From contig OZ316894.1 of the NCBI GenBank assembly GCA_973895155.1, forward strand, positions 991,968-1,055,967: DNA of 64,000 nucleotides, read 5' to 3'. Shown here piece by piece: positions 25,001-59,813 of the stretch. The first letter of the stretch is position 1. Each line of letters starts with the position of its first letter. The notes beneath the pieces are model-generated. The model did no database searches, was not told where the DNA came from, and worked only from the letters and a program-made list of their open reading frames with translations. The DNA is from Marsupella aquatica. Taxonomy: Eukaryota; Plantae; Marchantiophyta. A program made the translations under genes and the position numbers.

Positions 25001-28000
25001 AAGACAGTAGTTGGGTCGGTTATCCCGTCGCTTTCAGAGTTAAGATCTTGTCCAATTTGGAAACAATACAGCTCAATCTCCCGCCGCATGCGGCGAGGTC
25101 TGCCAAAGCGACAAATGATAAGCTAATTGCACGCTGTATATCGATTAAATCGACTGCACTTAAGCTCCGCAGAGTTTCCGCATGACAAGGAATTTCTCCA
25201 CTAGATGTATATATATACCTTGAGAGGTGTTCAATCAAAGTACCAGTTCTTGCTCAGGTGACCATATCGTCCCAATGCAAACGCCATCTGTTGGTGCCTC
25301 ACCGGTCCTGGAGCAGTATAGTGAGGTTCCTCTAGCTCGGATTTCGTTGGATGTAGTGATGCATTGCACTCTGCATATGAGTCACATTTGCAAGCAATTA
25401 GTAGGTTAACCTAGAGCTTTATCCCGATAGTGGACCTAGCCGGGACAGAAGCACCGCTTTCCTGTGTGAATTATGGTTATTGTAGTGACGCCGAGCTGTT
25501 CATCGGTCCAGCTAATGTGGAAACTAATCCCGTGACTGATTCCTCAGCAGTAAGGCACCAGGTCACCTTTGCTGGCAGTCTGTTCTGGCTGGCTTTGATC
25601 TAGCTGACCGGAGTTATGGATGGGATCACTGAGCAGATTTTCAGACTTTCAGGCAAGCATCGATTCATTTTGCCTGGTCAAATGCATGAAAGTACTGACT
25701 ATTTGAAAGAGTGACATAGCTAGAAATTTCGAAGTGGTCTTTAATTCTTTCCATAGTCCTGGTCATATTGACCAAGAAGTTGCTCGAGGGCGCTACGGTA
25801 GAACTACGAAGATTAGGCGTCGTAGAAGAATTACGCCGCCACCTTTGAGCTGGAGTTGAAAAGTCAGAGTATTCTGTCCCGTATGTTAGACAGTTAGCCT
25901 TGATTTTACGTATCTGAGTACCTTGACACTTTCTGAACTTCATTTTGCGGCTGAACTAAAGCCCAAAGTTGACGGCCGAGGTCTACCCCGACCTCCTAAG
26001 TCAAAGATGATCCATAGATTGGCTTGCGGCAATTAGATGGTTCCTGAAGTCTGAGCTAGACTTGATCATGATAACGAGTTAATTAACTAGCTGGGCCACG
26101 GACTATATCAGCTAGGCGTTGCAGTCACCAAAGGAAAACGTCAGGAAGGTGCCTGACCCGAACGCTTACGGTAACCTGAATTAGGCATCTCAGATTCGGA
26201 TCGCTAATTTGGTCTGGTTAATTCCTTGGCCGCTCGTCCTGCTTGAGGCTACGGACCTGGTCACCACACGCTTCTCGGAGATCTTAGCCGATTCAATCTA
26301 CAGGAGTACTAGCAATCTTAACAACCATATCTGGATTGAGGACAGGAATCATGCAATTGCGGGACATTACTCATGGACGGACGGCCCACTCGATCCAAAT
26401 GCGATCATTGCCAGAGTTCTCAACGATACTCCTCGTACGGAATACAGCTCTTTCGACCTTGTTCGGGTCTGCTCTCAGATCTGAGGCAATATCAGAGACG
26501 GTGATGTGTCTAGATTCTTTGAAACCCACAATGTATATAAATATGTGTATGCTTTACAAGCGCATTGATAATTAATTCGGGCAGTCAGGCATCACTATGA
26601 AGTTCGAATTATAATATTCCATTCTCTATAATTATGTCAGACTATGCAGATCTAGCTTAGCCTCCATCAAGGTAGCCAAACCACCGTTCGAATCCAGGGT
26701 TTTATTAGTACGCAATCTTTATTCCGGCAGTAAAATGACCGTAGGTTTCGTTCCCAGGCCTCCTTTGTCATTTGAAGCCAACTGTGGGATTGCAATCCAG
26801 CATTTGAACTACCTCTCCGTGGCAAGCTGTAACACCAACTTTGGGATTCAGAGTGTGTACTTCATTTTGAGCAGCCCGGTCATGTTCGGAGCAACATCTC
26901 AGACGGCTGCATGTGAAGCGATGTCTCTGTCCAAACCATTATTGGAATTCAAACTCTCAATTACAATAATTCGAAGTATTTTGACGTCTTTGATGCCGCT
27001 GACCGCACCAGGATCCGACTTTGAAGTCCCAATTACGTGCAATCAACGCTCTTTACATTGTGCTGCGCAGAGTGTGAGTGCACCCAGCGTAACGCTCTTC
27101 TTAATGAGCTGCAAAGATTGCGGGTATCAGACGTCATATCAACCCATCACTCTAGAGTACTCTGGAGAACGACGTCCACATTCGAAGCCTTTTTACTTTA
27201 AGCTCCAAAAGACTCGAGACTCTTGACGATGATGTACTGGGCTGGCTGCAGGTCTCTGTTGACACGTCAACCCATCGTATGACTTGGCGCCTTATGTTAA
27301 TTGAAGTTCGGAATCTCACTAAGGCAGCAAGCCCGAGGAATGCAACACAATTCACATGGGACGTGTTCGCAGTAGGCTATACTGTACGAGACAAAAACCG
27401 GGAAGCAAACGAAGGACGATACACGTTGACGACGTCGGTACGTAGAGGGCCCTCTGGGGGCGCTCTGGCAATTTCAAGGCCAGACTACGAGTTCGAGATC
27501 CACGCTGCTGCCCGCTTTCATGCCCGAAGTTTATTGCGTATCCTTTCTGTGTCGGTCCGCCCACCTCCCAAATCATTTCTCAACTCGCCCTTTCTGATTA
27601 TCGGTGAAACGGTGGAGAGATATGAACGCCAATCGAGATTAATAGTGCTACAATGCCACTACTTATTACAGAATCTATCGCTCACCGTACGTCAATCGCA
27701 GCAGCGTCCTCAGATTCTTTATGGGGATACTTGTTCTCTCATCCCAATACATTCCCCCTACGAATTTGTACTTATACTCTGCTCTCGTATTGGATCCATC
27801 TAGGGATTTGTCATCCTACGTTTTACTGCAATATTTTAACCTACCCATTGGCACTATATATATGGGTCAACCAGTCTCCTCGGATATTAAGCCGAGCTTC
27901 AGCATGGACAAGAGTAATGGCAGAAAAGATTTTGAGACGGACAGGGTGGGGAAGGCATGATTGATACATACTTCATAGTTCATACCCGCACCTGCTCTAT

Positions 28001-28379
28001 CCCAGGCTTGCTGACCAGTTCTCTCTCTTAAGGTCATTGCTATAGATCAAATCTCACCGAACCTACGCAGGGTCCGCAGCGGTAAGCTTCTAGTTACTTG
28101 TCCACACGTTTCTGTTGACAAAACCACATGCAGTGACGTGCTTCTTACTTGTGCCGGCGGCGTAGCATTCGTTTTGACATGTGAAATCGATGTTTTACAG
28201 CTAGCAGCTTTCTTCACAATGTGTCATTCTGCGGAAGAAACAATCCCCCTCGCAGCCCAGACGTTTGGAACGCTCGGGGTATCTAGAGTAAAATCGGATA
28301 CGGGTGTCGGAATCCCAGAAGGCTGCAATTATTGTAGGATTGTTGTTGATGTCGAGGAAACATGAGGCTCTCGATCAGT

Positions 28380-28452
28380 GGATATAATATGTCTTTATGT
28401 CACATAACATCTCTCTCTCCTCTCTCTCTCTCTCTCTCGCTCTCTCTCTCTC
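28380..28452 (+). promoter_or_regulatory. TATA-like motif plus CT-rich tract, possible 5' end of the hairpin-cluster transcript
   Basis: GATATAATAT at 28381, followed ~30 nt later by an interrupted (CT)n tract typical of plant 5' leaders. No protein gene is recognisable downstream before the hairpins. Confidence 0.4.
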
Positions 28453-30870
28453 TCGCTCTCTCTCTCTCTTCTTCGTGCTATTGGCAAGCGCGATTGGATT
28501 CCCGAGCGGACTAATCGCTAGGAGTTCTTCATTCCTTTGCACAGGGCGCGGGTTCCAAGCTACATCCAACTATTTACAGCGAGTTCTTTGTATGTCTTTG
28601 TCTTCTTCTCTGTCACTCTCTTGCTCTCAGTAGCTTAGGATTGCAATAGCAATTTTCTGTTTAAGGCTGACATTTCATCACTGTGGACAGATGTACCGGG
28701 TGGTTTCTAAGCTTCTGGATGGCCCGAATTGAATGCGAGAAGCAGGTGGTGAGCTAGTGATCCCTTTTTGTGACCTTAGTGCATTGCTTGTCAGCTACTG
28801 ACGTTTACAAGTAATCAAAGTCTGACCGTGCAGCAACGCTCCAGGTTTTGCATTGCATCTAAATCTCGCACATTGACCCCTCAATTTAGCTTCGAAAGTC
28901 TTCTCTAACATTTTAGTGTTCTCTGGTTGGCACCTCTCTACCATTCGAATGTTCTCTCGTTAGAACGCCTTGGACTTCAGATATATAGGGTCGCTCTGTC
29001 CACTGAATGGAGAAATTTCTCATTGGAACTATATTGATAGTGTTGCGCTTTTGATATTGAATTGCGGCTTCAAAATCGTTAGTGTTGAAATCACGTAACC
29101 AGAGTATCGTAATGTTTTAGTGCCATGATCTTGTTCTATCTAGCCTCTCTGCTATGTGGCGAGGGAACCACAATTCTTCTGCGCGCTCTTGGCTGAAGAA
29201 CCCACATTATCGAATCTTGCTAAGGGTCTGTACCCGTCGAGACGATGATTTCTGTTAGTGATGAGTGTAGAGACAATTCAATGCTGGCACGCATTGTTTT
29301 GAGCTGTCCTCCTCTCCCTCTTCTGATAATATGTTATCATGATGGAAGGCTCCTGCCGTTCAAGTACTTTGGTAGTTACCAAAATCTTTTGTGGAGATCT
29401 TCCGTTGCCTAAATTTCTTTTGTTGGAGAGGGTACTCATGATTACTCCATCACATTTTGCGCAAATACAGGCTTACTCTGAGGTCATCTTGTGCCCTTTC
29501 TTGACCTTTCCGATTAATCAGTAATCGGGCGGGCGGGCGGGCTTGGTTTTGAATTGAAGGACTAAGCTGATTCTGTGATGATTGTGGTGGGTTCGTGGAG
29601 CTCAAATCTATCCAAAACAGCGCTGGCGTCGTTATCGAGACTGCATCATCATCTTTTTAAAGCGGGCAACTTGTCCTGCCCGGCACCAGCTAGCGGGCAG
29701 CTAGCCCAGCCCGGGGAAGTTAGCAGCTGAGAATGCGGGACTTCAAGACAACCCTAGCTGTAAGTTCGCACGTACCTCCACAATTCTCTCTTCACCAGGC
29801 GTAATCTTCATCATCTCAACATTCATGAACGAGAATTTAGTAACGCACCTTCCGTTGAAACAGAAAATCAGGGTTGGTCGATTGCTTTCTTCAGAAACAG
29901 TTCGAGGGACCAGGATGAATTCTCTGGATACGAGCTGCCATGTTCAAAGGGTTTTCGTTGCAGTCTAAGGTGGGGTAGTTCTGCGAGTGGCGACAATACT
30001 CAGTCCAGTCTAGATACACTTTTCTTGTTAGCTGTCGATGCGGGAGTCAATGTCCCTCTAGATCGCCATCATCAGTGAATAGATCGTGGTAACGAAGTGC
30101 TCTCCGTCAATCCAAAGTACGTGTGGGGAGCAAGTGGTCTAAAGCTCCCAAAGGATAAGACAAACTTCTCAATGCCTGTTGTCTTTGTATATTATTAATC
30201 ATCCAGTTGCTAGCTCTTATTGAATTGCTTCGAGGGATCAGGATTCTCTTCTAACACAGCCCACACAAGGGTTCTCTAGTTCTCTGTCTAGTCCTAAAGC
30301 ATAAATTAGTTTTGATCATTTGTGGTGATGGCGTCAATCGTCCATCATGCGAAGAGACGATTTCAGTTAGCAAGTGGAGCACAAGTTTGACGCCTGGTAA
30401 TAGTATTTGCTACAGTAGCTGCTTACGATCAAGGCAACAGCCTCTCTTCCCCACCACACCCCCACAACAAAATTCAGCGAGTCATCTCACGAATAGACGC
30501 TTGACATCATGGTCATAGCATAGCGTGCACAGAACAAACTACGCACATATTCAAGAAGGAATTAGAGGTTGACTCGAGTTTAACTGTAGGAGATTAACCC
30601 AAATACACATGTATGCCTTTGAAATTTTCCACGTGAAGGTCTCTAAGTACATCTAACTATGCAAGATTCTGTTACAGCTTCCTTGGTTACACAATTCCAT
30701 ATATTCACCCATCTTTTCAATCAGCCAAGTTTTATTCTTACCCTATTGTCAAGTCGTGGTAAGTATGAACATTTCTTCATTCTTTCTGCAGCCGTTTCTA
30801 ACTAAGGTTTACTAATATCATGACAATTTGTTGACCAGAGTCAGACAGGCAATATGAACATTGAACTGAT

Positions 30871-30987
30871 TGCCTAGCAATAGCTAGCGCCCTTGATGGA
30901 GATGTTCTCTTGTGGAGTAGTTACAGGCAACGTAGCAAGGAAGAACTGGAAACATCTTCATTGAGTATGCTAGCTGCTTGCTAGGCA
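30871..30987 (+). ncRNA. Putative miRNA precursor hairpin 1
   Basis: TGCCTAGCAATAGCTAGCGCCCTTGATGGAGATGTT pairs with AACATCTTCATTGAGTATGCTAGCTGCTTGCTAGGCA: ~36-bp stem with several G:U pairs, 2 mismatches and 1 bulge. Confidence 0.75.
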
Positions 30988-31334
30988 CTTATTGTTGCTC
31001 ATGTTGCACTGATAATGTTGTTCAACTTGCTTTGAAACTTATGTTCGCTACCAACTCTGAGATATATTACGCTGCATTGCTGTTTAGTTAGGGCTAGCTC
31101 TTTGTGCGTAAGGTACTTTCTGACGTTATTCCCTGAGTGGATTGTACGTACATGAACTTGTCTGAGAGATACGTAGAAGATTGAGAACGATGTCCTTAGG
31201 TTTCTGATTTGTGTGAAATACTAGATATGTAAAACATATTCACGTTTGATTCAATCTGTAGTATAGGAGACAGCTTTGAGGAAGTGGAGAGGAGAAGTTG
31301 GGTCTGGGCGAGGGTCTGGGGACAAAGATTTGAG

Positions 31335-31424
31335 GCCTAGCAAGAGTTAGCTACCTTAATGGAGATCTCATCTTTATAATATCTACCAGATATCACCATT
31401 GAGCATGCTAGCTGCTTGCTAGGC
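31335..31424 (+). ncRNA. Putative miRNA precursor hairpin 2
   Basis: GCCTAGCAAGAGTTAGCTACCTTAATGGAGAT pairs with ATCACCATTGAGCATGCTAGCTGCTTGCTAGGC. Confidence 0.72.
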
Positions 31425-31749
31425 AACGACTGACTCACATTCTCTTGTTAGGACATCTATAATGTCGTGATATATTGATTTCGTTCATTCTGTTTACACT
31501 GGCTCATGAATTATACCATTTCAGGTGCGTGGGGAACTTTACTTGAATTTGACTAAGAGAACAAATTTCGTGTGATATTCTTCGGCATATTTGCACATAG
31601 ATTTAACCTAGCTACTACCTAGCCCTCTTGATGACCCTCATTTTGTAAGGAATCAGCTTCCACGCATTTCATACATTCAATGAAAATGGAACATAAATGA
31701 TGATTGATTTGGTTCTGGGAGACAGTTCATAGGTCAGCATAGGATCAAA

Positions 31750-31806
31750 TGCCTAGCAGTAATCGTAGGGGTGAAGACACTTCACTGAGTGTGCTAATTG
31801 CTTGCA
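31750..31806 (+). ncRNA. Degenerate, internally deleted hairpin paralogue 3
   Basis: TGCCTAGCAG..TTCACTGAGTGTGCTAATTGCTTGC keeps both arm signatures but pairs poorly. Confidence 0.4.
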
Positions 31807-32031
31807 ACATCAATTATATTAACCTCGACGCTTAGAGCTCTTGAGATCCTAACCTCTACTCACGATCTCGATCTAAGTAGAGTTACGTTTGCTAAACTAG
31901 TTGGAAACCGTGAAATTCCAACCAAAATAGCTCAATTTCTCCATCATTCGCAAAATTCAGGGAAGGAACAGCAATAATTTAAATGTTCACGGTTGATGCC
32001 TTGCAAAAGTGACTTGCATATGAAGCTAGAC

Positions 32032-32141
32032 TGTCTAGCAGCAGCTAACGCTCTTAATGGGGATGTCGCATGATTCGCAACATGCAACAAGGTCTTTGTT
32101 TTGAGACATCTTCATTGAGTATGTTAGCTGTTTGCTAGACG
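32032..32141 (+). ncRNA. Putative miRNA precursor hairpin 4
   Basis: TGTCTAGCAGCAGCTAACGCTCTTAATGGGGATGTC pairs with GACATCTTCATTGAGTATGTTAGCTGTTTGCTAGACG. Two compensatory substitutions relative to hairpin 1. Confidence 0.75.
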
Positions 32142-32339
32142 ATGACTGAGTATGCCAGTCCTTAAATTGATTGAATTGGAAAGTTCTTAAGGCCACAAAC
32201 GATGAGAAAATACCATACTTTATGTTAAGGCTTTGCTCTGACTTACTATACGTTTCACTTTATAGAAAAGTCTTCTTTGTCTTGTGAAAATGTTGATGAG
32301 CTGAAAGAGAATTATGGGAAACTGAGTTATTGAAGCACT

Positions 32340-32460
32340 CATTGCCTAGCAGAGGCTAGCGTCCTTGATGGGGATATCATCTTCATAATTTCGATGATCA
32401 ACAAGGATGAGCAGTACGATGACATTCTCATTGAGTGTGCTAGCTGCTTGCTAGGCAATG
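32340..32460 (+). ncRNA. Putative miRNA precursor hairpin 5
   Basis: CATTGCCTAGCAGAGGCTAGCGTCCTTGATGGGGATATCATC pairs with GATGACATTCTCATTGAGTGTGCTAGCTGCTTGCTAGGCAATG. Confidence 0.75.
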
Positions 32461-33465
32461 GTAAGTGCACCTATGAATCTGTTTTAATTAGTCACGAAAT
32501 GTAATATGTGAAGTCCTTTTTACTAAGTCTCGCCCGAATCTCATGAATCTCCAATCCAATAAATTATTTTCCAGAGTGGCTTATGACAAATCATTAGCTA
32601 CATGTCAGATATTTAGGCTGAATATAACATGTGGTTAAAGTTTTACCCTGAGCCAGACAAAGAGACATGTCAGATAATACTTCTTGCCGTCCTAGAATTC
32701 AATAATTAACCTTGAAAGAGTCAGATTCTTGTAATTCATGCTAACCTTCAAATATTCTTTTCCATTGTGATTTTATTAGGGTTATGCATTGAAAATGAAG
32801 ACGTCGTTATTGTAATTATGTAGTTCAAGCATGCTTATTTGGAATGGGCATAACATTCTTCATCTGACCATATGATTAAAACCAATTTAAACAATCAATT
32901 TCAACATCTATCATCATGTGTAACCTTTTGTGACATAGTTTGCCACCCATCAGAATCAAATCGGAAAGGAAATAAATCTCGTAAGTGAACGCTTGGAGGT
33001 CAAGTATTGAGTGCAAAAGCTTTTCAAAGATTGTTTGAGAGACTGAGTACTCTCACTGAGTGTCACATGTGAGCAAATGATTCCTTTTCAAAATGCTTTG
33101 CAAAGGTAGTTTAAGAACGTTTCATAGCAAGTGATATGTGTAAGATCAAAATGTTCTTCATCACATTTTATTTCACCTTACTTTCGATTTATGTTTGCTG
33201 CATCGTATATTGAAGTCCGTATCCAAAGACAAGCACTCTGTCCAATAAGAAAAACTTGACAATATTGGGCAACTGAATGTAGCGTACGATTTTTAGAGTT
33301 TTAAGTACTGTCGAAAGTACTGTAGTATCTGAATAACTTTGTGTATGTTGGAATGCCATTCTATTATAAATTTGGGTAGTCTTTTGGGTCTTAAAACTGA
33401 GAGCGAGTCTAATGATCAGTCTTCGACCTGCAATGTCTCCTGGACAATTTCAATTAACAAGCTTT

Positions 33466-33583
33466 TAGTGCCTTGCAAGGAGCTAGTTAACATAGTGATC
33501 CACGTTACATTACCATCGAAGATTGGAAGAGAGCTCAGTTTACAACGTGGTCACTAAGTATGCTAGCTTCTTGCAAGGCACTA
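33466..33583 (+). ncRNA. Putative miRNA precursor hairpin 6 (most divergent)
   Basis: TAGTGCCTTGCAAGGAGCTAGTTAACATAGTGATCCACGTT pairs with AACGTGGTCACTAAGTATGCTAGCTTCTTGCAAGGCACTA. Compensatory changes in both arms. Confidence 0.72.
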
Positions 33584-34156
33584 GAGACTTCTATAATGAT
33601 ATGCGTCCCGTCTCGACCTGAGGAATATCAATCTAGCACTGCTACAGAGCTTTGCTGTTATTGATCCATCTAATTCAATGAGAGAACCCAATTGGAAGAC
33701 AATCAACCAGAAAATACCCAAACTAGTCGTACTTAAAGTCGTCTTGTAGATTCCTATATGATGCCCTGCATCAAGCAGATACGAGAGTGAAGGAATTTCT
33801 TTTAGTTCCTTATATTGGAGCTCCAGCACACTTGGTACAGAATTGGGTTTTGTCATTGCATGTCTTAGTTTAGAAGGGTAGTCTGCAGTTCTAATCCTAA
33901 ATGCACATGCTATCAATCGCCCTTATCCAACTTTAGAATAAATCCCAACCATTCTTGAGGAGTGATTTGATGATTAAGACTAGGTGATCACTTGAATTGT
34001 CTATAGGCACAACAAGGATTCCGGCTGGTTGAAAGCAGTTTGAATGAGATTGCTATTGATAAGTACTTACTAGTTTTTGTCGTGTGTGCAGCATGTGATT
34101 AAGTGCAATATCTGCATGCGTTTTACCCATGTCGTTAGGGAGAACATTTTTCAACT

Positions 34157-34966
34157 ATGCAAAACATGACACTGAAGACATTCCAAGAGGCCATGTTCTA
34201 CCTTTTGACGTTGAATTCCATGTCTTTTATGTTGTTCAAGCCCCCATTCTCGTTATCCTCACTCATCTCGACAACCCTACAAAAGACTAGTGCAGCTGCG
34301 AAACCATACAAGAAAATTACGATTTGCTCCCACCCTCAATTATTTATTGCACCATATATGTACTTGTTCTCACAATCTGATGGGGATTGGATGTCTACCT
34401 GCACAAAGGTTGATAGAGTAATTAAATTTCCTCCAGTATTATGTTTGGACCAACATCCTTCTGACTCGGTGGAAAGTGAAAGTCTTGACACAAATAGGTC
34501 CAAGAATGATGATGGATTTAGGAATTTACTCAATGAGAAGGAGAGGAGACTCATGGAGAGGGCCAAAGAGGACATAAAGGTTCTTTTGAAGAAAAGGCGG
34601 AAAGAAAGTCGTAGGCACAAAATCCCGAAAGATGATGATAGTCTTGACGTCTCGAGAAACACAATAGAGGAAGACATAGAAGGAAGAGATATTTTGCATA
34701 AGTCCAGAGGTTGGAGTATTAAGAAACGATACCAGGAGGGCAAGCTTGCCATCCAAAAGGCAAAAGATGAGATTGTAAAGAAAAAGTACGAGAGTCAGCA
34801 GTTCTGCCGTAATCAAATAAGACTCTTGGGCAAGAAGTTCTTGGAGAAATCCTTGCAACAAGGCATGGAAATCCAACATCAGTTGGCAATTGCTGATAGG
34901 ATACTCAGGTCAGCCCAGAACAGGGGGTCACCTCGACCCACATCAGCACACTCAATCCAGAACTAG
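34157..34966 (+). CDS. Uncharacterised Lys/Arg/Glu-rich, probably coiled-coil protein (true start uncertain, possibly M at ~34358)
   Basis: Uninterrupted 269-codon ORF in AT-rich DNA, with a charged helical C-terminal half (NEKERRLMERAKEDIKVLLKKRRKESRR). No recognised domain. Confidence 0.5.
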   Translation: MQNMTLKTFQEAMFYLLTLNSMSFMLFKPPFSLSSLISTTLQKTSAAAKPYKKITICSHPQLFIAPYMYLFSQSDGDWMSTCTKVDRVIKFPPVLCLDQHPSDSVESESLDTNRSKNDDGFRNLLNEKERRLMERAKEDIKVLLKKRRKESRRHKIPKDDDSLDVSRNTIEEDIEGRDILHKSRGWSIKKRYQEGKLAIQKAKDEIVKKKYESQQFCRNQIRLLGKKFLEKSLQQGMEIQHQLAIADRILRSAQNRGSPRPTSAHSIQN

Positions 34967-35564
34967 AGTATTAGTCAATTGTGTAGCTCAGTGAGATAGT
35001 GGAACTTTTGTTTCATTGACTAGCTAGCAGTTGCTATTCTTATCAACAATATTCTTCCACAGAAAATTTATTCATGACTTCCACTGGCATGATTGTCGTA
35101 TTCAGTCTATTGCTTGATGAAATACTTCTCGAGTTGAATCGAGCGAATGAAATTAGTATAGGCAGCCAAGTGTTGTGCTATACTTGTACACCAGAGATTG
35201 TCAATAAGGATGACTGCACATTTACAGAATCATCATTCCCTCCAACACTAGGAAAAAAGAAGTGGCAGAAGGATGATGCAAGTCCTGATTGCCTGTCATC
35301 TGTGTCAATCGATAGATTGAATCAGTGTTAAGGTCTATTCTCGAGGTCTATGTATCTAGCACTGGTTCAATCTCTTCGGCCGGGAAGCGTTTGGTTCCCC
35401 CGCTTCTTCACAATGAAGACAGCCGACACACCCCAAAACTGATGCATGTCAAGATGGCAGTGGAGCAACCATATTCCTGATCTGGATCAGGACAGTCAGA
35501 CAGCTCTAAGTGGTAATTCGCTCGTATTTGAGGTGTATTCTGCTAAAGGAGAGGTAAAAAGGGC

Positions 35565-35925
35565 AATAAATGAACTAAAGACTCAGTTAGAGCTTTTGTG
35601 GTTATGGGTCACTCTCCGTTACATGGAAAGGTGCCACCAGTGACATGTCAAAGGTGATACAAATAAAAAATTCCGTGCTCGCAAAGCACAATAAATGAAC
35701 TAAAGAATCAGTTAAAGCTTTTGTGGTTAGGGGTCTCCCATTCTCGTCAAATTGAAGGTTGTCCCCATTCGCCTCATAGAAAAGTTTTCCTACCACAATA
35801 AAATGTACGAAAAGACTACTCAATAAGAGCTTTTGTGGCTCTGGTTTGGTCTCAATATCCCGAATGGAAAATTGCCACCACCGACATGTCATAGGTAATA
35901 AAATGAAAAAATTCCGTGCTTGTGA
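35565..35925. repeat. Degenerate tandem repeat, ~110-125 bp units
   Basis: AATAAATGAACTAAAGA.TCAGTTA.AGCTTTTGTGG at ~35565 and ~35691, with a variant at ~35797. TGCCACCA..GACATGTCA.AGGT..AAAAAATTCCGTGCT occurs twice. Confidence 0.7.
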
Positions 35926-36098
35926 AGAAAAGAATCCCCACGAGATGCCCTTTACAATCGGCGATTGCATCGATCGACAGAGTACTCATTCTGCTCGAAG
36001 ACTACCTTCAGACTCACTAATTGAAGAGGATGGGGCTCGCCAAAGAAGTCACCGGGGATGTAGAGCTGGAGGGGCACACAATTCGGTTGAGCACAGTC

Positions 36099-37340
36099 CC
36101 CCACCTCATCAAGCAAGACTTTCTTCTGCACTTCATAATCCAAGATACTGCCTGTTTCGGCTGGTTGCATGCACCTCAGGAGAGACAGGTCTATCACAGG
36201 TACGCTCTCACCATTCAACGCATCGGTGTACTCATCATGTCTACTCTTGGGCCGGAATTCAGGACTGAGGACGAATGCCGGGTCAATCTTCAAACCACAA
36301 GTGCCTGCAGGGACTGGGGATTCTTCCAGGTCCTAAACCATGGCGTGGAATCGGAGACGATTTGGAGCTGGAGATGAAGGAGTTCTTTGCGTTATCACCG
36401 GAGGAGAAGAGGAGGTTGGGCCGGAGCGAGGGGAATCCCACCGTGGACTACTTTGACAGTGAGGTGACGAAGCATGGGAGGGATTGGAAACAGGTTTTCA
36501 ATTTCGTGCAAGGGAGGATGGAGATGCCGGCTGGCCATGATGGCCACTTCAAAGAAAGGAACACAACGTTAATCAGGCTGAATCATTACCCGGCTTGTCC
36601 CAGCCCGAAGCTGGCCTTGGGAGTGAGCCAGCACAAGGACGGTGGAGCATTCACGGTGCTCTGGCAGGACCAAGTCGAAGGCTTACAGGTGAAACGGAAC
36701 GATGGCGAGTGGATTGCTGTGAAGCCTCGCCGGGATGCTTTCACCATCAACGTCGGCAATCTATTTCAGGTCCGGACCTTTCCTCATCTCAGAGATATCG
36801 AATGCATAATAGATAATGAACGACACAATTGAATACTCCTTTTTCTGAGCCATTTGCTGAGAGGATTTACTGGCTGTTTGCCCCCAATTGAAGAGGCCTT
36901 ATGCTCAGAAATGTTAGTCAAAGCCTCGAGAAAGACAACGTTTTTCTTCTCTCGTTTGGTGAGGGGGGAAGAGTACACATACTCCATAAAGTGACAATGC
37001 TCCGGCCTTGGTAGATATGTCATCTTAATCATTTCGATTGATGTTACTGTACCAAAATAGCTAAGATACAATATGTTATGGGATTGATCCCTCTCAAAGG
37101 AATTATCTCACAACCACTGTAGCTTTCAAGAGACGGTGCAATGTGCAGGTGTAGAACAACGACTTGTTTCATGAGTGTGGAGCACTGGGCATTGGTGAAT
37201 GAGCAGAAGGATCGACATTCAATACCTTATCTCTTCGGCCCTGCCCACACCACGAGTGGTTCCCTGTGCCTGAATTGCTTGATGAAGAACATCCGGCCAA
37301 GTATACGCGTTACAACTGGGGCCAGTTCTTGAAACAAAAT
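36099..37340 (+). pseudogene. 2-oxoglutarate/Fe(II) dioxygenase (DOXC) pseudogene with an inverted 5' segment
   Basis: + strand: SACRDWGFFQVLNHGV..EFFALSPEEKRR..YFDSEVTKHGRDWK..IRLNHYPACPSPKLALGVSQHKDGGAFTVLWQDQVEGLQV..NVGNLFQ | intron | V*NNDLFMSVEH..RHSIPYLF. The N-terminus (KIDPAFVLSPEFRPK..VPVIDLS..LLDEVG) is on the - strand at ~36099-36299. Frameshifts, a stop and an internal deletion are present. Confidence 0.88.
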
Positions 37341-38766
37341 GCCATTATGTGGACGTGGGATAAATGTCCAAATGTTGCAGATCAGAATCAATCGGGACTA
37401 GATAAGAGGCCTCCAATTTTCTTCGATGTACCGGCGTATTGATAAACTTCGGTCCAAGTCTAACCAAGACAATTGTATATATCAGTGAAAAGGATTGAAA
37501 TCGTGTTGTGCTTGAATTCTCGATAACTCAACTTTTAAGCTTAAGCTCACTTGCAACCTGCTGAAGCAGATGAGAATTTCCTTTGCCCGTATCTCTACCC
37601 TGTGCACAGCCTGACCAAAGAATAAGATCCTAGAATGTGCAGTCCACTAATAACTAGACTCCAAGTGTGGGAGGCGAGATTACACAATCCGAAGATTTTA
37701 TCTCAGAAGTCAGAGTGCCCAAAAATTACAACTCAAGTGGGGGAAAGAAGGAGGCAACAAGAGAGGAGTGAAACGTTTGAATGAATTTTACAACGGATGC
37801 CCAATTGTGCCACCCGGAAACCATACAAGGGGGTAAGGCTGGAGAACAAAATAACCTCAAGACATCGTTCCCTCTTGAATACTACAATCTGACCGTTCGC
37901 TGCTTGGGTAAGGTTTTGTGTTCCTGAATGGTCTTGTCATCCTAGAAACCAGCACCTGCACCGTGTACTGACCAGTACTTCGTACAGGCCAGAATATATA
38001 TTCACCGCCATGCCCGCTAACTGCTACACTGATGGATGTTGTCATCCTGCCAAGCTATCTCCACAAGGAAATTTCATCAACTTAAACTTTGCATACGGCT
38101 TTACAAGAATCTTATACAAACGAAGAGTTGATGCTTGTGGATGTAGCACAAGCACCTTTGAACACAGATGATGCCCGAAATATGAACTTTGGGATCTAAT
38201 TCTCACCAAATGCAAGCCACCACGTTTCCATCATGTGTATTCGGGACCTCAAGGCTTTCGCTGATGTAATCCGAGCTGCCATTTCTGTCCACTTCAGTTT
38301 AACAGCTTTCCTCCGTTTCAAACGTCCACGAGTCACTCAGTTCTCCGTTCTGAAGTTAAGAACAGAGAGCACAGCTAAACTCCAGGTACCTCCAAATTAC
38401 GCGCTCGAGCTGTTTTGAATGCATCTTTGTAATCCGACCTTTTGCTCCTATAGTTGACGTATCTCAAAATGTGATCATCCATTATCCCTGGTGCCCCTGT
38501 TAGTTCCCCGAACATCTGCCACAGTGCTGAGCTTCAGATGTAACAATTGAAGTGCATATATGTGCCTCGATAACTTGAGTAACATGTTCTTTCAAATGCC
38601 GTCATCACACGAAGAAGCTCATGCCATTATGTTGTGGCGGAGCCCCAGCTCGGAATGATGAGGATAAAGCGCCGTCAGAGAGTTGGGACGACACAGAAAC
38701 AGAAGGGCTCTGTGTCTGTCCAATTTGATAGTAATCGATCTCGTTTTGTTCTCAAATGCTAATGAC

Positions 38767-41451
38767 TTAGATCTTTAAAGAGGGCTTATTTCTTCGCAGG
38801 TCAGCCACTGCTGCATCTCTCAACAGAACCACATCCACGGCACCAGAAACTAAGTGATAGCCCCGTTTGAACAATGAATCTGGAGAGCTCTCCGGAGTTG
38901 CAAACCCTGCTAATAACACCATTCCCTGGCGTGAAAGAATCTTTTCCTCTGCATGACAGAACAGCAAACGAGCTTGTGCATCACAAGCAAAGCACAGCTG
39001 ATTAAGCACTACGTCACCCAGGCTTGATTCCAGCCTTGGACCCAAATAAAAGGAATTTTCAAGTCGGTTGGATTAACAATAAGAACAAAAGATTCACAAC
39101 CAACATAGGTTTGATACGAAATCTTACTGTTATAATCAAGGTATGGATCGCCGAGGCTAGCTCCAAAGTCTAGCCCACCCATTTGAATGCAATCTACTCC
39201 GTCCACCCCTGCGATCTCTATAATATGATCGGTAGCTTCCATTGTTTCAACCTAGTAAACATCAGCAATTGAACCGTAGTTAGCCTCAAATATTAACATA
39301 GGTATTTATCTGAATAGAGAGCTCCTCCGGTACTATTTTTCCCTCCCGAGAAACTAGTGGTGACAATTGTCCAATGATGGGACTAAACCGTAGACTAAGG
39401 ATGACGGTACTGAGCTATGGGAGTTCACACTTTGATACCAAATACAGGTTGGATTAGATTTGTAGTATGTACGTTTTGTTTAAACATTTTTAGTTTTTAC
39501 TGTGGTGATGGCTGAATGTGGAGCAAAATAAATTGCCATCAATGACCTGAGAAGCCATAACCTCACTTGACTTATTCCAAAATTTCCACTACGGTTATAA
39601 GTGACATTCTGTTTGAGAGATCCGAAAAACATATGAGTTAGATCCTCTCCCTACTACGAGAGCCCGAAAATAGCTGGAGTAAAATCTGTTTTTTTTTTAA
39701 CTTGGTAGGCTTGGCGGGGGTTTTCTTCCCTTCTCATGGCCAGAATTCCTTTGTTTGTCGGTGTTTGTACTATAGGAGCTCAAATCTGATCCTTTGTAAG
39801 CACAAAACCTCATACGCTGTACCGTTTGCAGCAATCACGTACTGTATCCCAACCGTTTCCCACTAGACACCAGAGAATGGCATAACTTCAAGGTTTAGGA
39901 GTTTAGAATCTTAAGAGAATTACAGAGCATAAGAATGGTTTCGGGATTATGAATGCAACTTCACTGGACTGCGTGTGATATTCACCACACATATGATCTT
40001 CAAAACGTGTGAGAAGCACAATTGCCTTGACTGACCGTGTGACCTGAAGCAGCTTGATCATGAGACAGAATCTGGAAGGATGCACCAACCTGACATATTA
40101 CGAAGAGCTCTTCCTCACACCGATCTATGTAGGAGGCATCCAGACCATAGTGTGAAGCCCTGCTGACCACATGACGAGATCCCCTTCGAATTCCACCAGG
40201 TGGGTATCTGCACAGAGCCACTGCATTTCTCGCCGCTTCCTCGTTCTCAATCATGGAGAACATCAATCCGGCAGGCCCCATATCCAGCGCCTTGTTGACG
40301 AGAACAGGATCATCACCAGGAAGGCGAAATATGGCTGGCGTGCCTGTTGACGCCAAGGCTTGCAACACCGGGAGAGCGGCAAAATTGTCCCCAGGGAACA
40401 ATTGCCCCAAATCTACCACTACGAAATCGTAGCCCGCCCAGCCCAAAATCTCTGCGACGACGGTGGAAAAGCTGACCAGAAATGCTCCATAAAGTTTGTG
40501 TCCTGCTACAAGTTTGGACTTCAAAGATGTACACGTGGATGAAGGGGTAAGAGGAGCAGCTCGGGAAGGAGGAGGGGATACAGCAGCAGCTAAGTTATCA
40601 TGAAGACCTTCACTTGTCACACTTTCCCCCAAGCTCGCCCACCTATGAATTGAGGGTGATGCAGCGGCAGGAGAGGCTCGAGAGGATGACGGAATTGCAG
40701 GGGATTTGACTTGCTGCAAATCCACAACTTTAATGCTTTCCCTGAAACCCCTCGGCTTTTGGAAAGATGGGGATGCATCACATGAAGGGGACTTCACCAG
40801 CAGCACATCCCCACCTCTTATGGTATCCCTCAAGGTCCTCTCCCCTTGGTCAGATGGTGGCGCGTTGACTGTAGGGGAATTAGGGGTCCTGGCCTGCTGT
40901 ACCTCTCCACTTCTTACGCTGTCCCTCGAGCTCCTCTCCCTCAAGCTCGTGGGCTCTTGAGATGTTGGTGATCCATTTATTGACAAGTCCTTTGCCTGCG
41001 GTAAATCTCCAATTCTTCTACTTTCCCTCAAGCTCCTCTCCCGTTGCAAAGATGGCGAGGAAATCGCTGAAGGGGAGTTGGCCGGCTGCACATCTCCGTT
41101 TCGTATGCTTTCCCTCAAGCTCCTCGCCCCATGAGATGAAAATGACGCATCAGCTGAAGGGGACTTCACATCTCCACTTCTCCCATGATCCCGCAAGCCC
41201 CTCGCTTCTCGAGATGATAGCGAGGTAGCAGTAGCAGCAGCAGCAGCTCCAGTAGCTAGGGAAGAAGATGATGGGGCTGAAGGTGAATTGGGCTGCAAAT
41301 CTCCACTTCTTTCGTTGTCAGCAAAACCCCGCCTGGCCGTCGTGGCAGCAGTTGGGAAGTGCTCCAATTTGGACCCTTGAGCGAAACCACAAGTACTTGG
41401 GCGGGTTGGTCGCTGAGTTACACCACCGTTGCCCTCCAGAGCTTTGGACAT
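38767..41451 (-). CDS. HpcH/HpaI aldolase/citrate-lyase family protein with a long Ser/Pro/Arg-rich repeat N-terminus; exons 41451-40090, 39251-39128, ~38972-38767
   Basis: SLKSKLVAGHKLYGAFLVSFSTVVAEILGWAGYDFVVVD..PAIFRLP..KALDMGPAGLMFSMIE..CRYPPGGIR..RASHYG..ICQ | VET..IEIAGVDGVDCIQMGGLDFGASLG | AEEKIL..LAGFATP..RGYHLVSGAVDVVLLRDAA. GT-AG junctions. The last acceptor is uncertain. Confidence 0.9.
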
Positions 41452-43155
41452 CTCCTAAACCCCCAAACCTCCTCGTTACGTCTCTTCGTCCCTCCACCTC
41501 GTCGTCGTCGTCGTCGTCTTCGTCAACCCATCTGTGTCTTACTGCTGAGTTGGAAAGTGGATGGTCTGCTGTCTGCTGACCGACAGAATGCAAGCACTTT
41601 ACTGAAAGGCAAACGGCACCCTTATGGACAGAATATGGATAAGAAATAAGGTTTGTTGGATCAAAAAAATGAAGTGCCGGTGCGTGGAACCTAACGCCTA
41701 TCACAGTACTCCTGTATTTATCACACAGGAACGCCAAACCGTGGTATGCATAACACGTCTTCCATTCAGGGAGACTGACGGATACTTCTGGTTTATTCAG
41801 GGTATCGCTCAATCCTGATGAAAAGTTGAAGGTTGACCTCCGAAGCTTTCCGTTTGGTAGGGGAAGTGGCGACAGGATCTCTGTCCAGATGACAGAAATT
41901 GGGTAGATTTTGAACCAGTCCAGGGAAATCCTGAAAATTGAGATGTTCCCAGCGGAGCTAGAGATCTTGTCTCAGTTGAGGAGGTTGGGAAAAAAATTCA
42001 GGTGAGAGCTTTTCGTGCACCTGAGAGAACTTGTGAGATTGTGTAATTGTGCTCGACCTCGTCCTTTGCAATTTTAGCTGCTAAATATTTGAATAACTTG
42101 ACGTCTGCACCTTTAGAATCTTTGTTGTTCCTAAACACTTGGAATCTCGTTGCTGCCAAGAATCGAGGGGAACAGAGGGCATCCGAAACGTTCCTGCCAA
42201 GGACTAGAATCTTGGGGAAGGAACATGCATCCCAAACATGGAGAGGCACAAATAGCAAGGGGAAGTGATGTGTAGACTAGTCATTTAGTGCAACGACCAA
42301 TATCAGCGTTGTCATTACATCCTGCCTTAGCATCAGCTTTCAAGAATTTGTGGTAGGATCTTGCTCCATGAGAAGAGGAGAAATTCCAGCTGAAGCCTAC
42401 GTCCTTTCTCTGATTTGCCTCATCCAAAGGTTTTACTTTGAATTTTTTTAGTTTTTTAAATAATATCCTACTGTAATACAATCCCGGGCCAATAACCCCG
42501 ACCCACTGCTTCGCTTTGCATCATCCACAAGTTTTTCTTTGAATCGACTCCAAAAAGTGACACCATGGTGCCACAAAGCCTAGTGACTAGTCTAGGCTCA
42601 TGTTCCATGCCAAACACTACACAAAAAGCCTTCCGGCTCAGTCCTTGACAAGAAGTGGGTGACTGTAGACTCTAAACAATGCAAGCTGCAGAGTAACTAC
42701 TGTATCTGTTCTTATAAACTAACTCCGTGATGCTACATCTGGGTGGTTCAGAGTATCTATTAAATAACTGCAGATGCCTCTGGGCTCTGGTCCACCACAG
42801 GGTCCTCAATACACTTGAGACACTGCTAAGGCAAGTATTTTCACTAATCTCCTGGATACAAGAACAGGTACCGGAGTGAGAGTGATAGAAAAGAGCACCT
42901 GAGCAATTCCCACACTGTTCTGTGCTGGATAGTCCTACACTTCAGTTTATCGTCACGATTGGAGGGTGAAAAATTAAGAAGACACTCACTAATCAATAAA
43001 GACCAGCCACTCCATCCAAAGAAGGAAAAGGGTTGACAGAGGTGGTACGAAACAAGCTCAAATGAACTCATGAAAATGATTTTAAGCCCTGCAGAATGAA
43101 GGGCAAAACAATTGTCATTGTACAGATGACTGTTTTGAGAGACTCGTTGAAAGCT

Positions 43156-45225
43156 CTACTCTTCAGCTATCGGGAAAGCTGATCCGATGCAGTTTCTGCC
43201 GAGAGGATATACTTTGACGTTGACATAATATGGCCCCAGAGTCACGTGATTATCCTCTGCTCCACAGAAATAACATAAAGTATAGAGAGCCATCTCAAAC
43301 TCTGGACTCACCCCAATCAGGGTGCTACTCACTGCTTTCAGGATGCCGTTCCATTTGAATTGCACAGTTAGAAGCTGCGAGTGGGAATCAGGCTGCAACA
43401 CGCAAGAAACAGCATATTCATATATACATGCTCTTAGCTCTTCCAAAGTATGCAAGCAAACTTTTGGCATGATCGAGGCAATTCTACGAAAGTTTTGTCT
43501 CCTAACAATAAAGATTCGTCGTTTCCCCCTCTATACCTCCATAAGCTGACACAGGGTACACCGAATAGCTACTTACGCAGAGACTGTCAGAAGTAGCTTG
43601 CTAAAGATGGCAATGTTTCAAAACACAATCGCTCCAAAACTGAAATTATAGACCGAAAAAACTCACCATTGGATCCCCTCTTCGTCTTGGCATGATGAAC
43701 CCTTGGTAGTCCAAATGGCCCTTGGCTTCCTCCAGATAAAACTGCAAAACGGAAGGACTGTGTCATGAACCCTTGGGAGATGAAATCTGATGATCTAGGG
43801 TCCTGGCTGATGGTTTTAAATTCAATACCAACATCGTTCCGATTCTGATCCAGTTTCTCTTATCGACGACAGCCGTAATCTGCCAAGGTAAGGGACATCG
43901 AACCTTACGAAAAGAGGAAGGTCGAATTGCTGGTGAAAGCAATGGACGCCAGGAGCAATGAGAACGGAAACACAGCCATAGCACGTAATCATCCAGTCAT
44001 GGTTGTAAGCACTCGACCGGCGTTCGGGGAAATTGGTCAAAAAGCTAAAACAGATGAACCATGACAACAACTTCAATGCTGGGTGTAGTGAGCCTCATTA
44101 CCTGCATCCAATTATGCATTCCTGAAACTTCAGTCTCACCAGTATTCCTATCATGCTTGACCTCCCCAACGAACACATGCTCAAAAGCCGAAGAAGAGCC
44201 CCTCGTTCCACCTCTGTTATACGGGTCAAACCACAGAGAACGCATGGCATTCTTGAACTGCTGCTCATCTCCCTGGATAACATTTTTTGCTTCCAGATAC
44301 TTGTGAATATATTTCAGAGGTGCTGTCCTGCTTATCTCCTCAATGAAAGCTATCTCTTCATTTTGCTCTTGAGAAGATCTCTTTTCAGCAACATGCTCAT
44401 CCGGATTGTAATTATCCAGCAATGCGTAGAAGCGAGCGTACGTGGGTCTTTGAAACACACTTTGGTCCAAATGACTAAAAAGGGAAGCATCCGCGTGATC
44501 CTCCTTTAAGTAAACTTTCGTGCCGTTACCGACGTCAATGGCATAGTCCCTCCCCGGCGTCAAACGATTGATATCCAATTCCCACAACCTGCTGACTGCT
44601 TTGGACACATCGCTTAGCTCCTCCCTTGTAGGTTCCACATTCACCGTTGATGTGCTCACATGTTCTGCATATTGCTGCTCGCTAGCAGGAACTTTGTAGC
44701 TCTGACGGATGTCATCTGTCAACTGTGGGACAATCAGATCAAAGAAATCGATTATCAGCTAAAACATTTGGGCACCCTCAGATATCGGAAGCTGGTCAAA
44801 TAGATCCTCTGATGCTGAGATGATCAGCTGAAATAATCAGGATAACCATGGGAAACATCGACGTGTATGACAAAATAAAGAAAAATCAACCAATGTACAG
44901 TGATTATGATACGGAATGTCAATAGGTAGCTCAAGTAACATTTCAAACACCAAATACACCACATATCACGAGTTTACAATCTCCAGAGCGCTATCAAGGA
45001 GGCCTACCAATTTGAAAATTCATCTGTGAGCCTAAATCTTCTTGGCCATCTACCACGAATACTGGAAAACTCCTGCCTCGCTAATGTGTATCTCTTGCGG
45101 AAGCCTTCTCAGAGGAAGTTAAGATCGTTTTGTCAGCTTGGTTGTAAAGGAAAACTCACCTGATGAAATTTCGCACTCACCATTTCTTTCACTGTCTTCT
45201 TCAACGCGCCAAACATGCCTTTCAT
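43156..45225 (-). CDS. ENDOU: Poly(U)-specific endoribonuclease (EndoU/XendoU family); exons 45225-45181 (or 45160), 44722-44102, 43741-43667, 43392-43156
   Basis: RLWELDINRLTPG..LF..RPTYARFYALLDNY..SSAFEHVFVGEVK..VSGMHNWMQ | FYLEEAKGHLDYQG | TVQFKWNGILKAVSSTLIGVSPEFEMALYTLCY. The catalytic His, His and Lys motifs are present. All introns are GT-AG, phase 0. Confidence 0.94.
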
Positions 45226-45589
45226 AGAAAACAAAGATTCTCCATCCTGAATTTGACAAAATCCGCCTCGGATATAGGTAAGAAGAACACAACGCAACAC
45301 TACATATCGTACCCAATAGCACGAAGTCATACACACCACCCTGATGAAACTTATACACGAAACCGAATCGTCGGAACCAGACTAAGAGATTGCCTCCTCT
45401 TCTGAAACAAGATAAGTTTATGCCTCCCAGAAGTGGCTGGAAGAAAACAGTTGCAACCAAAAACAAAGCTGGCCACTGTTGTGTGTAGCTTTAAGTTCCT
45501 ACTACCCTTCTCCAAGGCTAACATTTCACACTAGCACTGCGTACTTGCATCTACACGTGCCACAGTTTAGTGAATCAACTATGCAACCG

Positions 45590-46045
45590 TACACAGCTAG
45601 GGACTGGTTTGAGCTTGAGAAGCTGAAGATTGAGCCCCTTGCTGCGATTGGTATTGTGACCTGGACTATGCGTGATAATATTTTGTTTGACAACCTCCTC
45701 GTCACCCAGGAGCAAGCTGAGGCAGAGTACAAAGAGAATACATAGAACCCCAATTGTGATGCAGAGAAGGTAACAAAGCAGCCGAAGAGAGCGTTGCAAG
45801 CCCTGAAGAGAGTCCTTCAACAGAAAGGTTTTCTAGTTATTATATTAGATTCCTGAATTTCCACATTTGGCTTCATACATCTGACGTGCGCGAGAAGGCT
45901 AAGAACGATAGGACGCGTGCATGTTGCTGGCATCGTCGGCGCAACAGCCATCTCTCTTGCCCTTTTCAAAACGGTCGATTTTGGTCGGAAGAAGACTATG
46001 GCCCCTGTGCCAGCTGCCGAGAAGAACGATGAGGAATTGAGGTAG
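45590..46045 (+). pseudogene. Calnexin C-terminal gene fragment
   Basis: DWFELEKLKIEPLAAIGIVTWTMRDNILFDNLLVTQEQAEAEYKENT* resembles the calnexin DYFEL..EPIAAIGIEIWTMQDGILFDNILI motif. It is followed by a TM-like AGIVGATAISLALF and a basic GRKK tail. Stops and frameshifts, no 5' part. Confidence 0.75.
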
Positions 46046-50855: not shown

Positions 50856-51578
50856 ATAGGACCAATCACAAAATATAGAGGGAAATCAGACTTCTAAAAT
50901 CTTTGAGGATCAAGAAACCAACAATCCGGATGTAACTCACAAACAAGACCTGCTAAACAGTGCTAAACAGAAAACATCAGAGACTAGCCAGGAATGGCAA
51001 AGCGAGAGGCAAAAGCCCTAGAAAAAGAGCTGGAAATCCCTAAGTTTCGTGCGGAGGAGTCACAAGGGAAGTACACGAGCTGTCTGGGAAACTCGATGAT
51101 GCACTCTCCAATCCGCCAAGAACCTAATCATAAAGCAGGTGAATGGTGACATTGTGGGTCTAAGGTCTGAAATGACGAAACTAGAGCAAAGAGCACTTAT
51201 GGGAAAATAAGCTGAGTTCACCTGACAGGGGAAATTTAGCTTGCGGGCGTGCAAGGGCTGGAGTTTGCTAACTGTTCCAATACCTCCTGATGCTTTGTCT
51301 TTTCCTTCGACCTGCTCCTGAACTTCCAAAACGAGTAATCTGCAGTCCTGCTACTGAGCCCAACGAAACAAAACCCAAAAATTCAGCCGTCAATTTCCTG
51401 CATTCTCTTCTTCGACAATGGTTTTCTAAGTGGATGCCTTTGCCAGTAGGATTCAACTTCTGAGTGTGTCCCAATTCTATATTATAAATAAACAGATAAA
51501 GAGGCTTACCTGAAGTTCTCCTCGACTGCTGAACTTAATCTTCGATAGACCTTCTTCCAGCAAAAGCAAGGATTGTTC

Positions 51579-51856
51579 GAATATACAATAGTCGTTGCAG
51601 AAACTGCAAATCTCCTGCGACATTCCAATATCTTGCTACTTATACAGGAGCAGCGCTTGCGGAATACTTTATGTATTGTGAACAGCACACTCTTATTGTT
51701 TATGATGATCTTTCAAAACAAGCTCAAGCTTATAGACAAATGTCTCTTTTATTGAGAAGACCACCAGGCCGAGAAGCTTATCCAGGGTATGTTATTTATT
51801 TACATTCTCGTCTATTGGAAAGAGCAGCAAAATTAAGTTCTAATTTAGGTGGAGGT
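51579..51856 (+). pseudogene. atpA: Nuclear plastid DNA insertion (NUPT): internal fragment of chloroplast atpA
   Basis: [10 protein letters not shown](fs)[81 protein letters not shown] is the plastid-type variant, codons are AT-rich, and there is a frameshift. Confidence 0.93.
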
Positions 51857-59805: not shown

Positions 59806-59813
59806 GTGTATGG

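Follow-up and report, generated by a model that had tools for sequence, protein, structure and literature searches.

We analysed a 64,000-nt window of the Marsupella aquatica genome (GenBank assembly GCA_973895155.1, contig OZ316894.1, positions 991,968 to 1,055,967 of the forward strand); all coordinates below are positions in this window. At 30871-33580 it holds six hairpin units, H1 to H6, all in + orientation, which an original prediction made from the sequence had taken for a candidate polycistronic microRNA (miRNA) family that it could not assign. Five of these units are likely miRNA precursors and probable homologues of the MIR11888 cluster of Marchantia.

A cluster of six co-oriented hairpins

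A repeat search recovered a 39-nt family with six copies on the + strand (table 1), at spacings of 438, 386, 330, 316 and 1123 nt, in agreement with the predicted six co-oriented units in about 2.7 kb. The consensus that their 3' arms had been said to share was also recovered, except that H2 carries a C for the consensus T at 31404. A degenerate 26-nt arm pattern matched five times, compared with no match in each of 100 shuffles, and nhmmer found no seventh unit in the 64-kb window (next best E ~1). As predicted, spacers and loops are unrelated: the best mutual similarity between spacers has E=0.44, which amounts to nothing shared, and the loops range from 19 to 44 nt. The cluster DNA is poor in open reading frames: from 28400 to 34100 the + strand has no ATG frame of more than 70 codons. 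Pfam gave no match in 47 frames of at least 55 amino acids within 26000-36300, nor in five of six others listed (all but 34554-34718 on the - strand).

Table 1. Units of the cluster and predicted products. z, fold z-score on the + strand.
Feature	Position	Strand	Start of 39-nt copy	Copy identity to H1	Description
H1 hairpin	30871-30987	+	30951	100%	5' arm 30871-30906, 44-nt loop, 3' arm 30951-30987; z -5.56
H1 predicted lower stem	down to ~30846:31011	+			from the fold
H1 predicted 5p partner	30874-30893	+			same position as the reported Marchantia RNAs
H1 predicted 3p small RNA	30966-30986 (21 nt) or 30966-30987 (22 nt)	+			putative; from Marchantia register, depth edge at 30987 and duplex geometry
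H2 hairpin	31334-31425	+	31389	82%	19-nt loop; lower stem predicted, register uncertain; z -5.86
H3 unit	31750-31811	+	31775	62%	decayed; most of 5' arm and loop lost; z -0.55
H4 hairpin	32032-32141	+	32105	85%	37-nt loop; two compensatory changes; lower stem to ~32007:32163; z -5.92
H5 hairpin	32343-32457	+	32421	87%	42-nt loop; 8-bp helix immediately below conserved block; z -5.73
H6 hairpin	33469-33580	+	33544	82%	39-nt loop; most divergent intact copy; one compensatory change; 10-bp helix below block; z -9.43
Predicted 3p equivalents in other intact units	starts 31404 (H2), 32120 (H4), 32436 (H5), 33559 (H6)	+			putative

Folding, compensatory changes and strand bias

Folding on the + strand gave -42 to -63 kcal/mol for H1, H2, H4, H5 and H6, with z-scores of -5.56 to -9.43 (300 dinucleotide shuffles per unit); on the - strand z ranged from -2.7 to -8.1. 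The five intact stems are about 36 bp long, within the 30-40 bp that had been predicted, to which we add that little of the 5' arm and loop remains in H3, which does not fold above shuffles. In the context of the cluster, 28-34 arm-to-arm pairs had p>0.5 in the intact units and 7 in H3. A conserved internal loop, level with 30966-30967, is common to all five stems; H1, H2, H4 and H5 have one extra 3'-arm base, a one-base bulge that the H6 duplex does not have. By plant MIRNA annotation criteria reportedly given by Axtell and Meyers in 2018, five of the six units form a single-strand fold-back of less than 300 nt; the five intact ones have 1-4 unpaired bases in each of four registers near the base, within limits of five mismatches and three asymmetric-bulge bases. 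The minimal folding free energy index (MFEI) fell below -0.85 in only three of 3194 windows of 130 nt on both strands, two of them inside the cluster.

The alignment contains all three compensatory changes that had been reported for hairpins 4 and 6: CG>UA at columns 3:116 and GC>AU at 18:101 in H4, and AU>UA at 6:113 in H6. Of the 32 predicted pairs, 6 show a two-sided change. When the arms of the five intact units were aligned without favouring either strand, 141 oppositions were Watson-Crick, 22 G:U, 3 A:C and 13 of other kinds, bearing out the claim that many non-Watson-Crick pairs are G:U on the + strand only; collapsed to distinct column types, the ratio was 14 G:U to 2 A:C (p=0.004). 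The consensus energy was -33.4 on the + strand versus -26.4 on the - strand. The 3' arm was, as stated before, better conserved than the 5' arm, with a mean pairwise identity of 0.81 compared with 0.69 in the five-unit alignment and of 0.87 compared with 0.72 over the basal 21 nt.

Lower stems

When folded with 40-nt flanks, all five intact units continued to pair for 20-40 nt below the conserved block. We scored this pairing after joining the flanks through a short clamp, used random spacer pieces and shuffles as controls, and pooled the units by Fisher's method. Flanks of 25 nt gained -11 to -17 kcal/mol, versus about -8 for random spacer pieces (pooled p=0.003 against these pieces and 0.0007 against shuffles); with 35-nt flanks pooled p was 0.011 and 0.002. 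Since the flanks pair although they are just 28-32% identical among units, lower-stem structure appears to be kept without sequence. Such pooled pairing of flanks into lower stems is as in DCL1 precursors. In angiosperms, a lower stem combined with variable loop length characterizes base-to-loop precursors (bioRxiv 10.1101/129684, in part). Because sequence-free lower stems are present here and loop length varies, we infer base-to-loop processing, by carrying the angiosperm rule over to a liverwort.

Probable relatives in Marchantia

The Rfam 15 families gave no match at the gathering threshold in the window, and single-hairpin searches reached at best 21.5 bits against a threshold of 170, a generic score for long hairpins. 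A loose likeness of the arms to pen-miR536a, at 13/22 with gaps, was equalled by 61% of 1500 shuffles, and miR536 was dismissed. The earlier view of an unassignable family is not supported, as the cluster ties to the catalogued Marchantia MIR11888 cluster as a probable homologue. The entry point was an arm motif that matched a predicted target of mpo-b3.0r1-1336 in the supplement of PMC11799827. According to the tables of that study (PMC11799827, in part), the loci mpo-b3.0r1-1334, -1335 (= mpo-MIR11888a) and -1336 share one strand of scaffold_3, where they fall within 892447-893382 (936 nt), 410-500 nt apart (410 nt from 1335 to 1336), and are typed MIRNA; the length of one locus is given as 87 nt. 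Counts are low (mean 2-7). Locus 1334 is reduced in Mpdcl1a (log2 fold change -3.8, false discovery rate 0.014), and 1335 and 1336 are reduced in Mpdcl1b (false discovery rates 0.08 and 0.05) and under salt.

The 1334 RNA, CUUGCAAGCAGCUGGCAUCCU, is complementary to 30964-30984 at 18/21 positions. Against the complement of the 3' arms of H1 to H6 it scored 18, 18, 15, 16, 17 and 18 of 21, and a score of 18 was reached by none of 3000 shuffles; the MIR11888a and 1336 RNAs scored 14-16/21. When both strands of the window were scanned with the 1334 RNA, all three sites at 18 and one of two sites at 17 were cluster units, and a rough chance expectation over 500 miRNAs x 160 positions is 0.0007. With the looser mpo-MIR11867 as a fourth relative, the four Marchantia RNAs make 7 G:U and 2 A:C oppositions to the H1 3' arm, and most other mismatches fall at positions 18-19 of these RNAs, opposite the conserved internal loop. 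With one gap, the predicted H1 5p partner agrees with the three cluster RNAs at 14-15/21 positions. That the cluster RNAs are closer to the complement of the 3' arm (14-18) than to the 5' arm (13-16) is expected if both lineages keep the 3' arm fixed while their 5' arms drift separately by wobble.

Complementarity of the opposite arm in one register was thus found, as were co-oriented loci in tandem whose size and spacing are similar (three versus six units), whereas no same-strand mature sequence lay within a few mismatches of miR11888. Since the same-strand match is only 13-16/21, the cluster is a probable homologue and not a strict miR11888 member. On this sequence evidence we hold homology with the Marchantia cluster to be likely, with good confidence. 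In both species same-strand tandem hairpins lie a few hundred bases apart (316-1123 nt here), and the hairpins are of ~90-115 nt here compared with the 87 nt given for Marchantia. The Marsupella cluster differs in having six units and more elsewhere, versus three on scaffold_3; in that the strand listed for Marchantia corresponds to the variable arm here; and in that four of five 5' arms are one base short, leaving an asymmetric bulge. It is a genuine and well-formed cluster of a known kind, probably homologous to that of Marchantia, and departs from its counterpart in size, bulge and conserved strand.

Several other Marchantia sequences resemble the cluster. mpo-MIR11768a matched the H1 5' arm only, at 15/20 (0.5% of shuffles), and 9-13 elsewhere; it has a same-strand neighbour ~480 nt away (PMC11799827, in part). 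A transcript in the same tables, Mapoly0092s0064, has a site 16-18/21 identical to the 3' arms here with a multiplicity of 2 (PMC11799827, in part); this transcript, which carries no annotation, may be an unrecognized precursor or a two-site target. By eye and post hoc, a 3'-side segment of pre-Mpo-miR11699 (PMC4788410 supplement) resembles the H6 3' arm at 19/21 with one gap. Within the window, a + strand site at 34015-34035 is complementary to the 1334 RNA at 17/21, lies ~100 nt before the frame that begins at 34139 and has no family-type hairpin; it may be a chance match or target-like.

Full-text search of one literature library, with some key papers outside it, found no paper on miR11888, miR11867 or their sequences and none with the arm motifs, and the liverwort papers checked did not mention 11888. 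No matching miRNA was found in the supplements of the Pellia study, Lin 2016 (file 2, with long cells truncated), You 2017 or Lunardon 2020 (files 2-8); three arm-motif matches in the You 2017 supplement were all in protein-coding sequences. The 42 novel miRNAs of Pellia included no clear family member, and pen-miR8186 was discarded as one, its score of 14 being reached by 253 of 3000 shuffles.

Further copies in public contig data

The stretch is contained, always as contigs, in five public runs from three studies, none of them recorded as RNA; four of the runs were compared over 29800-34600. All four had a depth peak in the bin with the H1 3' arm: 1442 in X4, 974 in X2, 520 in X3 and 68 in X5, compared with roughly 70, 55, 45 and 4 outside the peak. 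A smaller peak was seen at H5. At 6-nt resolution the excess covered 30952-30987, was highest from 30958 and stopped exactly at 30987. Over H1, depth in X1 rose from 12-16 in the loop and flanks to 58-67 across most of the 5' arm and to 987-1138 at 30958-30987; the corresponding values in X4 were 82-85, ~317 and 6300-7200. In both runs depth was back at baseline immediately past 30987. This corresponds to a rise of only ~4-5-fold on the H1 5' arm and to no rise on its loop. One 40-nt unitig in X1, which differs from H1 at three bases, the same number as H5, had a depth of 169.5 versus 12-19 for single-locus contigs (~9-14x).

At loose ends and joints, other loops and flanks were attached to the same arms. 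The new loops were preceded by 5'-arm sequence, so at least some of the extra copies are hairpins. Contigs carrying two 3' arms were present, and one variant had outer bases changed on both arms in a compensatory-looking way, seen in separate loose-end rows and not in one contig. Some distant copies had similar 3' flanks, as judged from loose ends by eye. These results show more hairpin copies elsewhere in the genome, probably a dozen to a few tens, which share mainly the 3' arm.

X2, X4 and X5 also contained a second haplotype or homeolog, ~2-8% divergent with indels over 29800-34600, which in X2 accompanies a copy identical to the window. The X4 contig over 30867-31393 has 17 changes, four of them within 30867-31010, and of these four the three listed lie in the H1 loop; the H1 stem has at most one change in 73 bases against ~2.5 expected (small numbers, counted by hand from the changes listed). 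A metagenome scan with an exact arm 20-mer found no locus, and viral contigs none. Five loci that matched a degenerate 20-mer had neither a matching 5' arm nor a blastn match to the window and were taken as chance.

Register and guide strand

The Marchantia register sets the 5p start at 30874 and the 3p RNA at 30966-30986, UAUGCUAGCUGCUUGCUAGGC; we infer a 3p product ending at 30986 or 30987 if cut sites are conserved. The predicted 3p begins with U in five of six units (H1, H3, H4, H5 and H6). The 3p RNA predicted for H1 has a self-fold of -6.7 kcal/mol and may be ligated poorly. With a cut at 30987, the 3'-arm bulge of H1, H2, H4 and H5 would give a 22/21 duplex, and a 22/21 duplex from a one-base asymmetric bulge can start phased small interfering RNAs (siRNAs) (PMC11381321, in part). 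The earlier reading of + strand DCL1-type precursors whose 3' arm is constrained is supported by the G:U bias, the lower stems, the depth profile of the 3' arm and the Marchantia relatives. The register of the predicted 3p product is revised to 30966-30986/7 from 30961-30981, which is five bases away and geometrically valid too.

Given the + strand MIRNA reading and MIR11888 homology, we lean towards the 3p strand as the main guide. Part of the text of PMC10841014 describes a case of arm switching between liverwort classes, Pen-miR8170 / MpmiR11865*. A search of the window with four registers of five units found no target site with a penalty of 5 or less. The conserved arm translates as SLSMLAAC-stop, IEYASCLLG, PSKQLAYSM and QAASILNE, which may weakly resemble the ends of PPR helices or subdomain III of kinases, with no target claimed.

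Comparison with other clusters

The cluster resembles the miR482/miR2118 families of 22-nt triggers in being multi-copy and in its one-base asymmetric bulge, with 22-nt length and phasing here only predicted; no sequence relation to them was found in Rfam. The loci of miR2118 are clustered. Hairpin loci placed close together are also found in the polycistronic MIRNA clusters of Physcomitrium patens. About a quarter of miRNAs in that moss lie near other MIR loci, while in liverworts one polycistronic locus was reported among 23 resolved Marchantia transcription units and none was found in Pellia (PMC9291395, PMC4368373).

Interpretation and alternatives

Our best explanation is that five of the six + strand hairpins are likely miRNA precursors and probable MIR11888 homologues that would be cut by DCL1 from one likely shared transcript (probability about 0.75). 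Taken by itself, the modelled + strand MIRNA reading of the cluster is strongly favoured. An RNA polymerase II transcript would cross the cluster, and DCL1 would cut each intact hairpin from base toward loop, releasing the lowest ~21 pairs of the conserved block as a duplex. The near-identical 3p RNAs would then load into AGO1 and silence shared target mRNAs, with copy number raising the dose. Tandem and longer duplications would have enlarged the family; loops, spacers and 5' arms would then have drifted, while the 3' arm was held. On the + strand, a TATA-like stretch followed by a CT microsatellite occupies 28381-28474. It precedes H1 by 2.4 kb, no long ATG frame lies between it and 34139, and it is a possible start of the primary transcript. 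Splice-donor-like GGTAAGT sites occur on the + strand at 30758, just before H1, and at 32460, in the H5 lower stem, and the primary transcript may be spliced.

Several observations weigh against this explanation. Lower-stem pairing is weak per unit (p 0.025-0.23 with 25-nt flanks), never significant for H2 alone, and with 18-nt flanks the pooled p was 0.076 against random pieces, which is not significant, and 0.018 against shuffles. The G:U excess could be increased by transcription-linked mutation bias. At 29-36 nt, the conserved block is longer than one miRNA, and identity is 0.86-0.89 for all 21-mers starting at 30959-30968, so conservation alone cannot set the register. The RNA listed in the Marchantia tables for all four loci is the strand taken here as the partner, and the same-strand match of the 5' arms to the three cluster RNAs is 13-16/21 with one gap. 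Homology rests on 21 nt plus arrangement, and the Marchantia lead was post hoc, after several motif searches of supplements. Depth does not equal copy number, as overlapping unitigs were summed and 5' arms less than 80% alike would escape mapping.

The same cluster and homology would hold if the 5p strand, or both strands, were the guide, with a diverse 5p set aimed at 3'-arm-like sites. We regard this as possible rather than probable. It would account for the 5p-like strand listed at all four related Marchantia loci and for the two-fold site in Mapoly0092s0064, and wobble-type variation is also expected of guides aimed at one fixed site. However, a passenger should not exceed its guide in conservation, and it is the 5' arm that varies over the basal 21 nt, is one base short in four of five units and has a family depth ~15-20x below that of the 3' arm; Mapoly0092s0064 is unannotated and may be another precursor. 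Reading the cluster from the - strand would turn the conserved arm into a 5p guide and a direct orthologue of the Marchantia RNAs (18/21) and explain why the best-conserved arm matches them best, and - strand folds do keep negative z-scores. This is very improbable, and we rejected it: 22 G:U oppositions turn into A:C mismatches, folds with 30-nt flanks are ~14-15 kcal/mol weaker in four of five units, and 3-7 bases of the candidate RNA are unpaired versus 2-4 on the + strand.

The units could also be a non-autonomous transposon (miniature inverted-repeat or fold-back), a DNA-level repeat of another kind, or hairpins whose only products are diffuse siRNAs. High family depth, at least one 40-nt stretch identical in many copies and inverted ends that start with TG and end with CA in three of five units would fit a transposon. 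Yet no target-site duplication, which the original prediction had named as the mark of such a family, is shared at the ends of any of the five intact units. The interior is not conserved, the loops being unrelated and without excess depth; one arm is far better conserved, and the depth excess is much larger on that 3' arm. All six units have one orientation, non-canonical pairs favour one strand and the flanks pair mutually, and the similar 3' flanks of some distant copies, seen by eye, fit duplication with flanks better than insertion. Folds with DNA parameters differ between strands by only 2-5 kcal/mol and so weigh neither for nor against a role as single-stranded DNA. Altogether we consider a DNA-level or diffuse-siRNA origin unlikely. 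Marginally less likely still is a real miRNA cluster of independent origin, whose likeness to MIR11888 would reflect chance or convergence on a shared target. This likeness spans 21 nt and came to light post hoc, and Pellia, of the same class, has yielded no clear member. Against this stand the 18/21 match, which keeps the same register between two tandem, co-oriented clusters that are alike in spacing and hairpin size, and the low chance expectation given above.

Surrounding sequence

Downstream of the cluster, a 275-codon frame at 34139-34966 (+) has no Pfam or Atlas match and two relatives only, one of them from Calypogeia fissa, and is taken as a lineage-restricted gene. At 36269-45745 follow a 2OG-Fe(II) dioxygenase, an HpcH/HpaI aldolase, an EndoU and a calreticulin-family exon, which are usable as synteny anchors. 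Among 185 matches of the EndoU exon at 44045-44758, the best named one was from Calypogeia fissa (81% identity), with Marchantia at 58% and Riccia at 60-61%. These two proteins, the EndoU and that of the frame at 34139-34966, point to a leafy liverwort as the probable host. The strongest MFEI structure outside the cluster is a long fold-back at 10800-11250 (-), of -140.9 kcal/mol over 451 nt, possibly a miniature inverted-repeat transposable element. A frame at 51539-51979 (+) resembles a portion of the plastid ATP synthase alpha chain and is presumably an organellar insertion. Exons at 54132-55341 (-) we take to resemble the alpha/beta-hydrolase domain of liverwort NLR-type proteins (one frame scanned, no Pfam match at 0.01), and 3681-4208 (-) is presumably a Mutator-like transposase fragment, with no Pfam match. 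A decayed retroelement with a zinc knuckle lies at 57738-62500 (-).

Significance

Beyond the original prediction, the analysis adds the pooled lower-stem pairing, further genomic copies and probable relatives in Marchantia. Conserved miRNA families have one to three loci each in Marchantia (PMC4788410), and three liverwort-specific families common to Marchantia and Pellia are reported in the consulted part of PMC10841014. A tandem cluster kept in a complex thalloid and a leafy liverwort, and enlarged in the leafy one to probably a dozen copies or more, would, if true, add a fourth family to those shared, one of unusual size. It is a more speculative and rather doubtful idea that the family is old and liverwort-wide, has 3p as its true guide and tens of clustered copies in leafy liverworts, and acts as a 22-nt, bulge-made trigger of phased siRNAs against a large gene family, a separately arisen counterpart of miR482/miR2118. 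The cluster raises the precise question of which strand is the guide, and the three Marchantia hairpins are small enough for one ~1 kb deletion. A shared cluster would point to a conserved function of the Marchantia locus, for which our literature search found no study.

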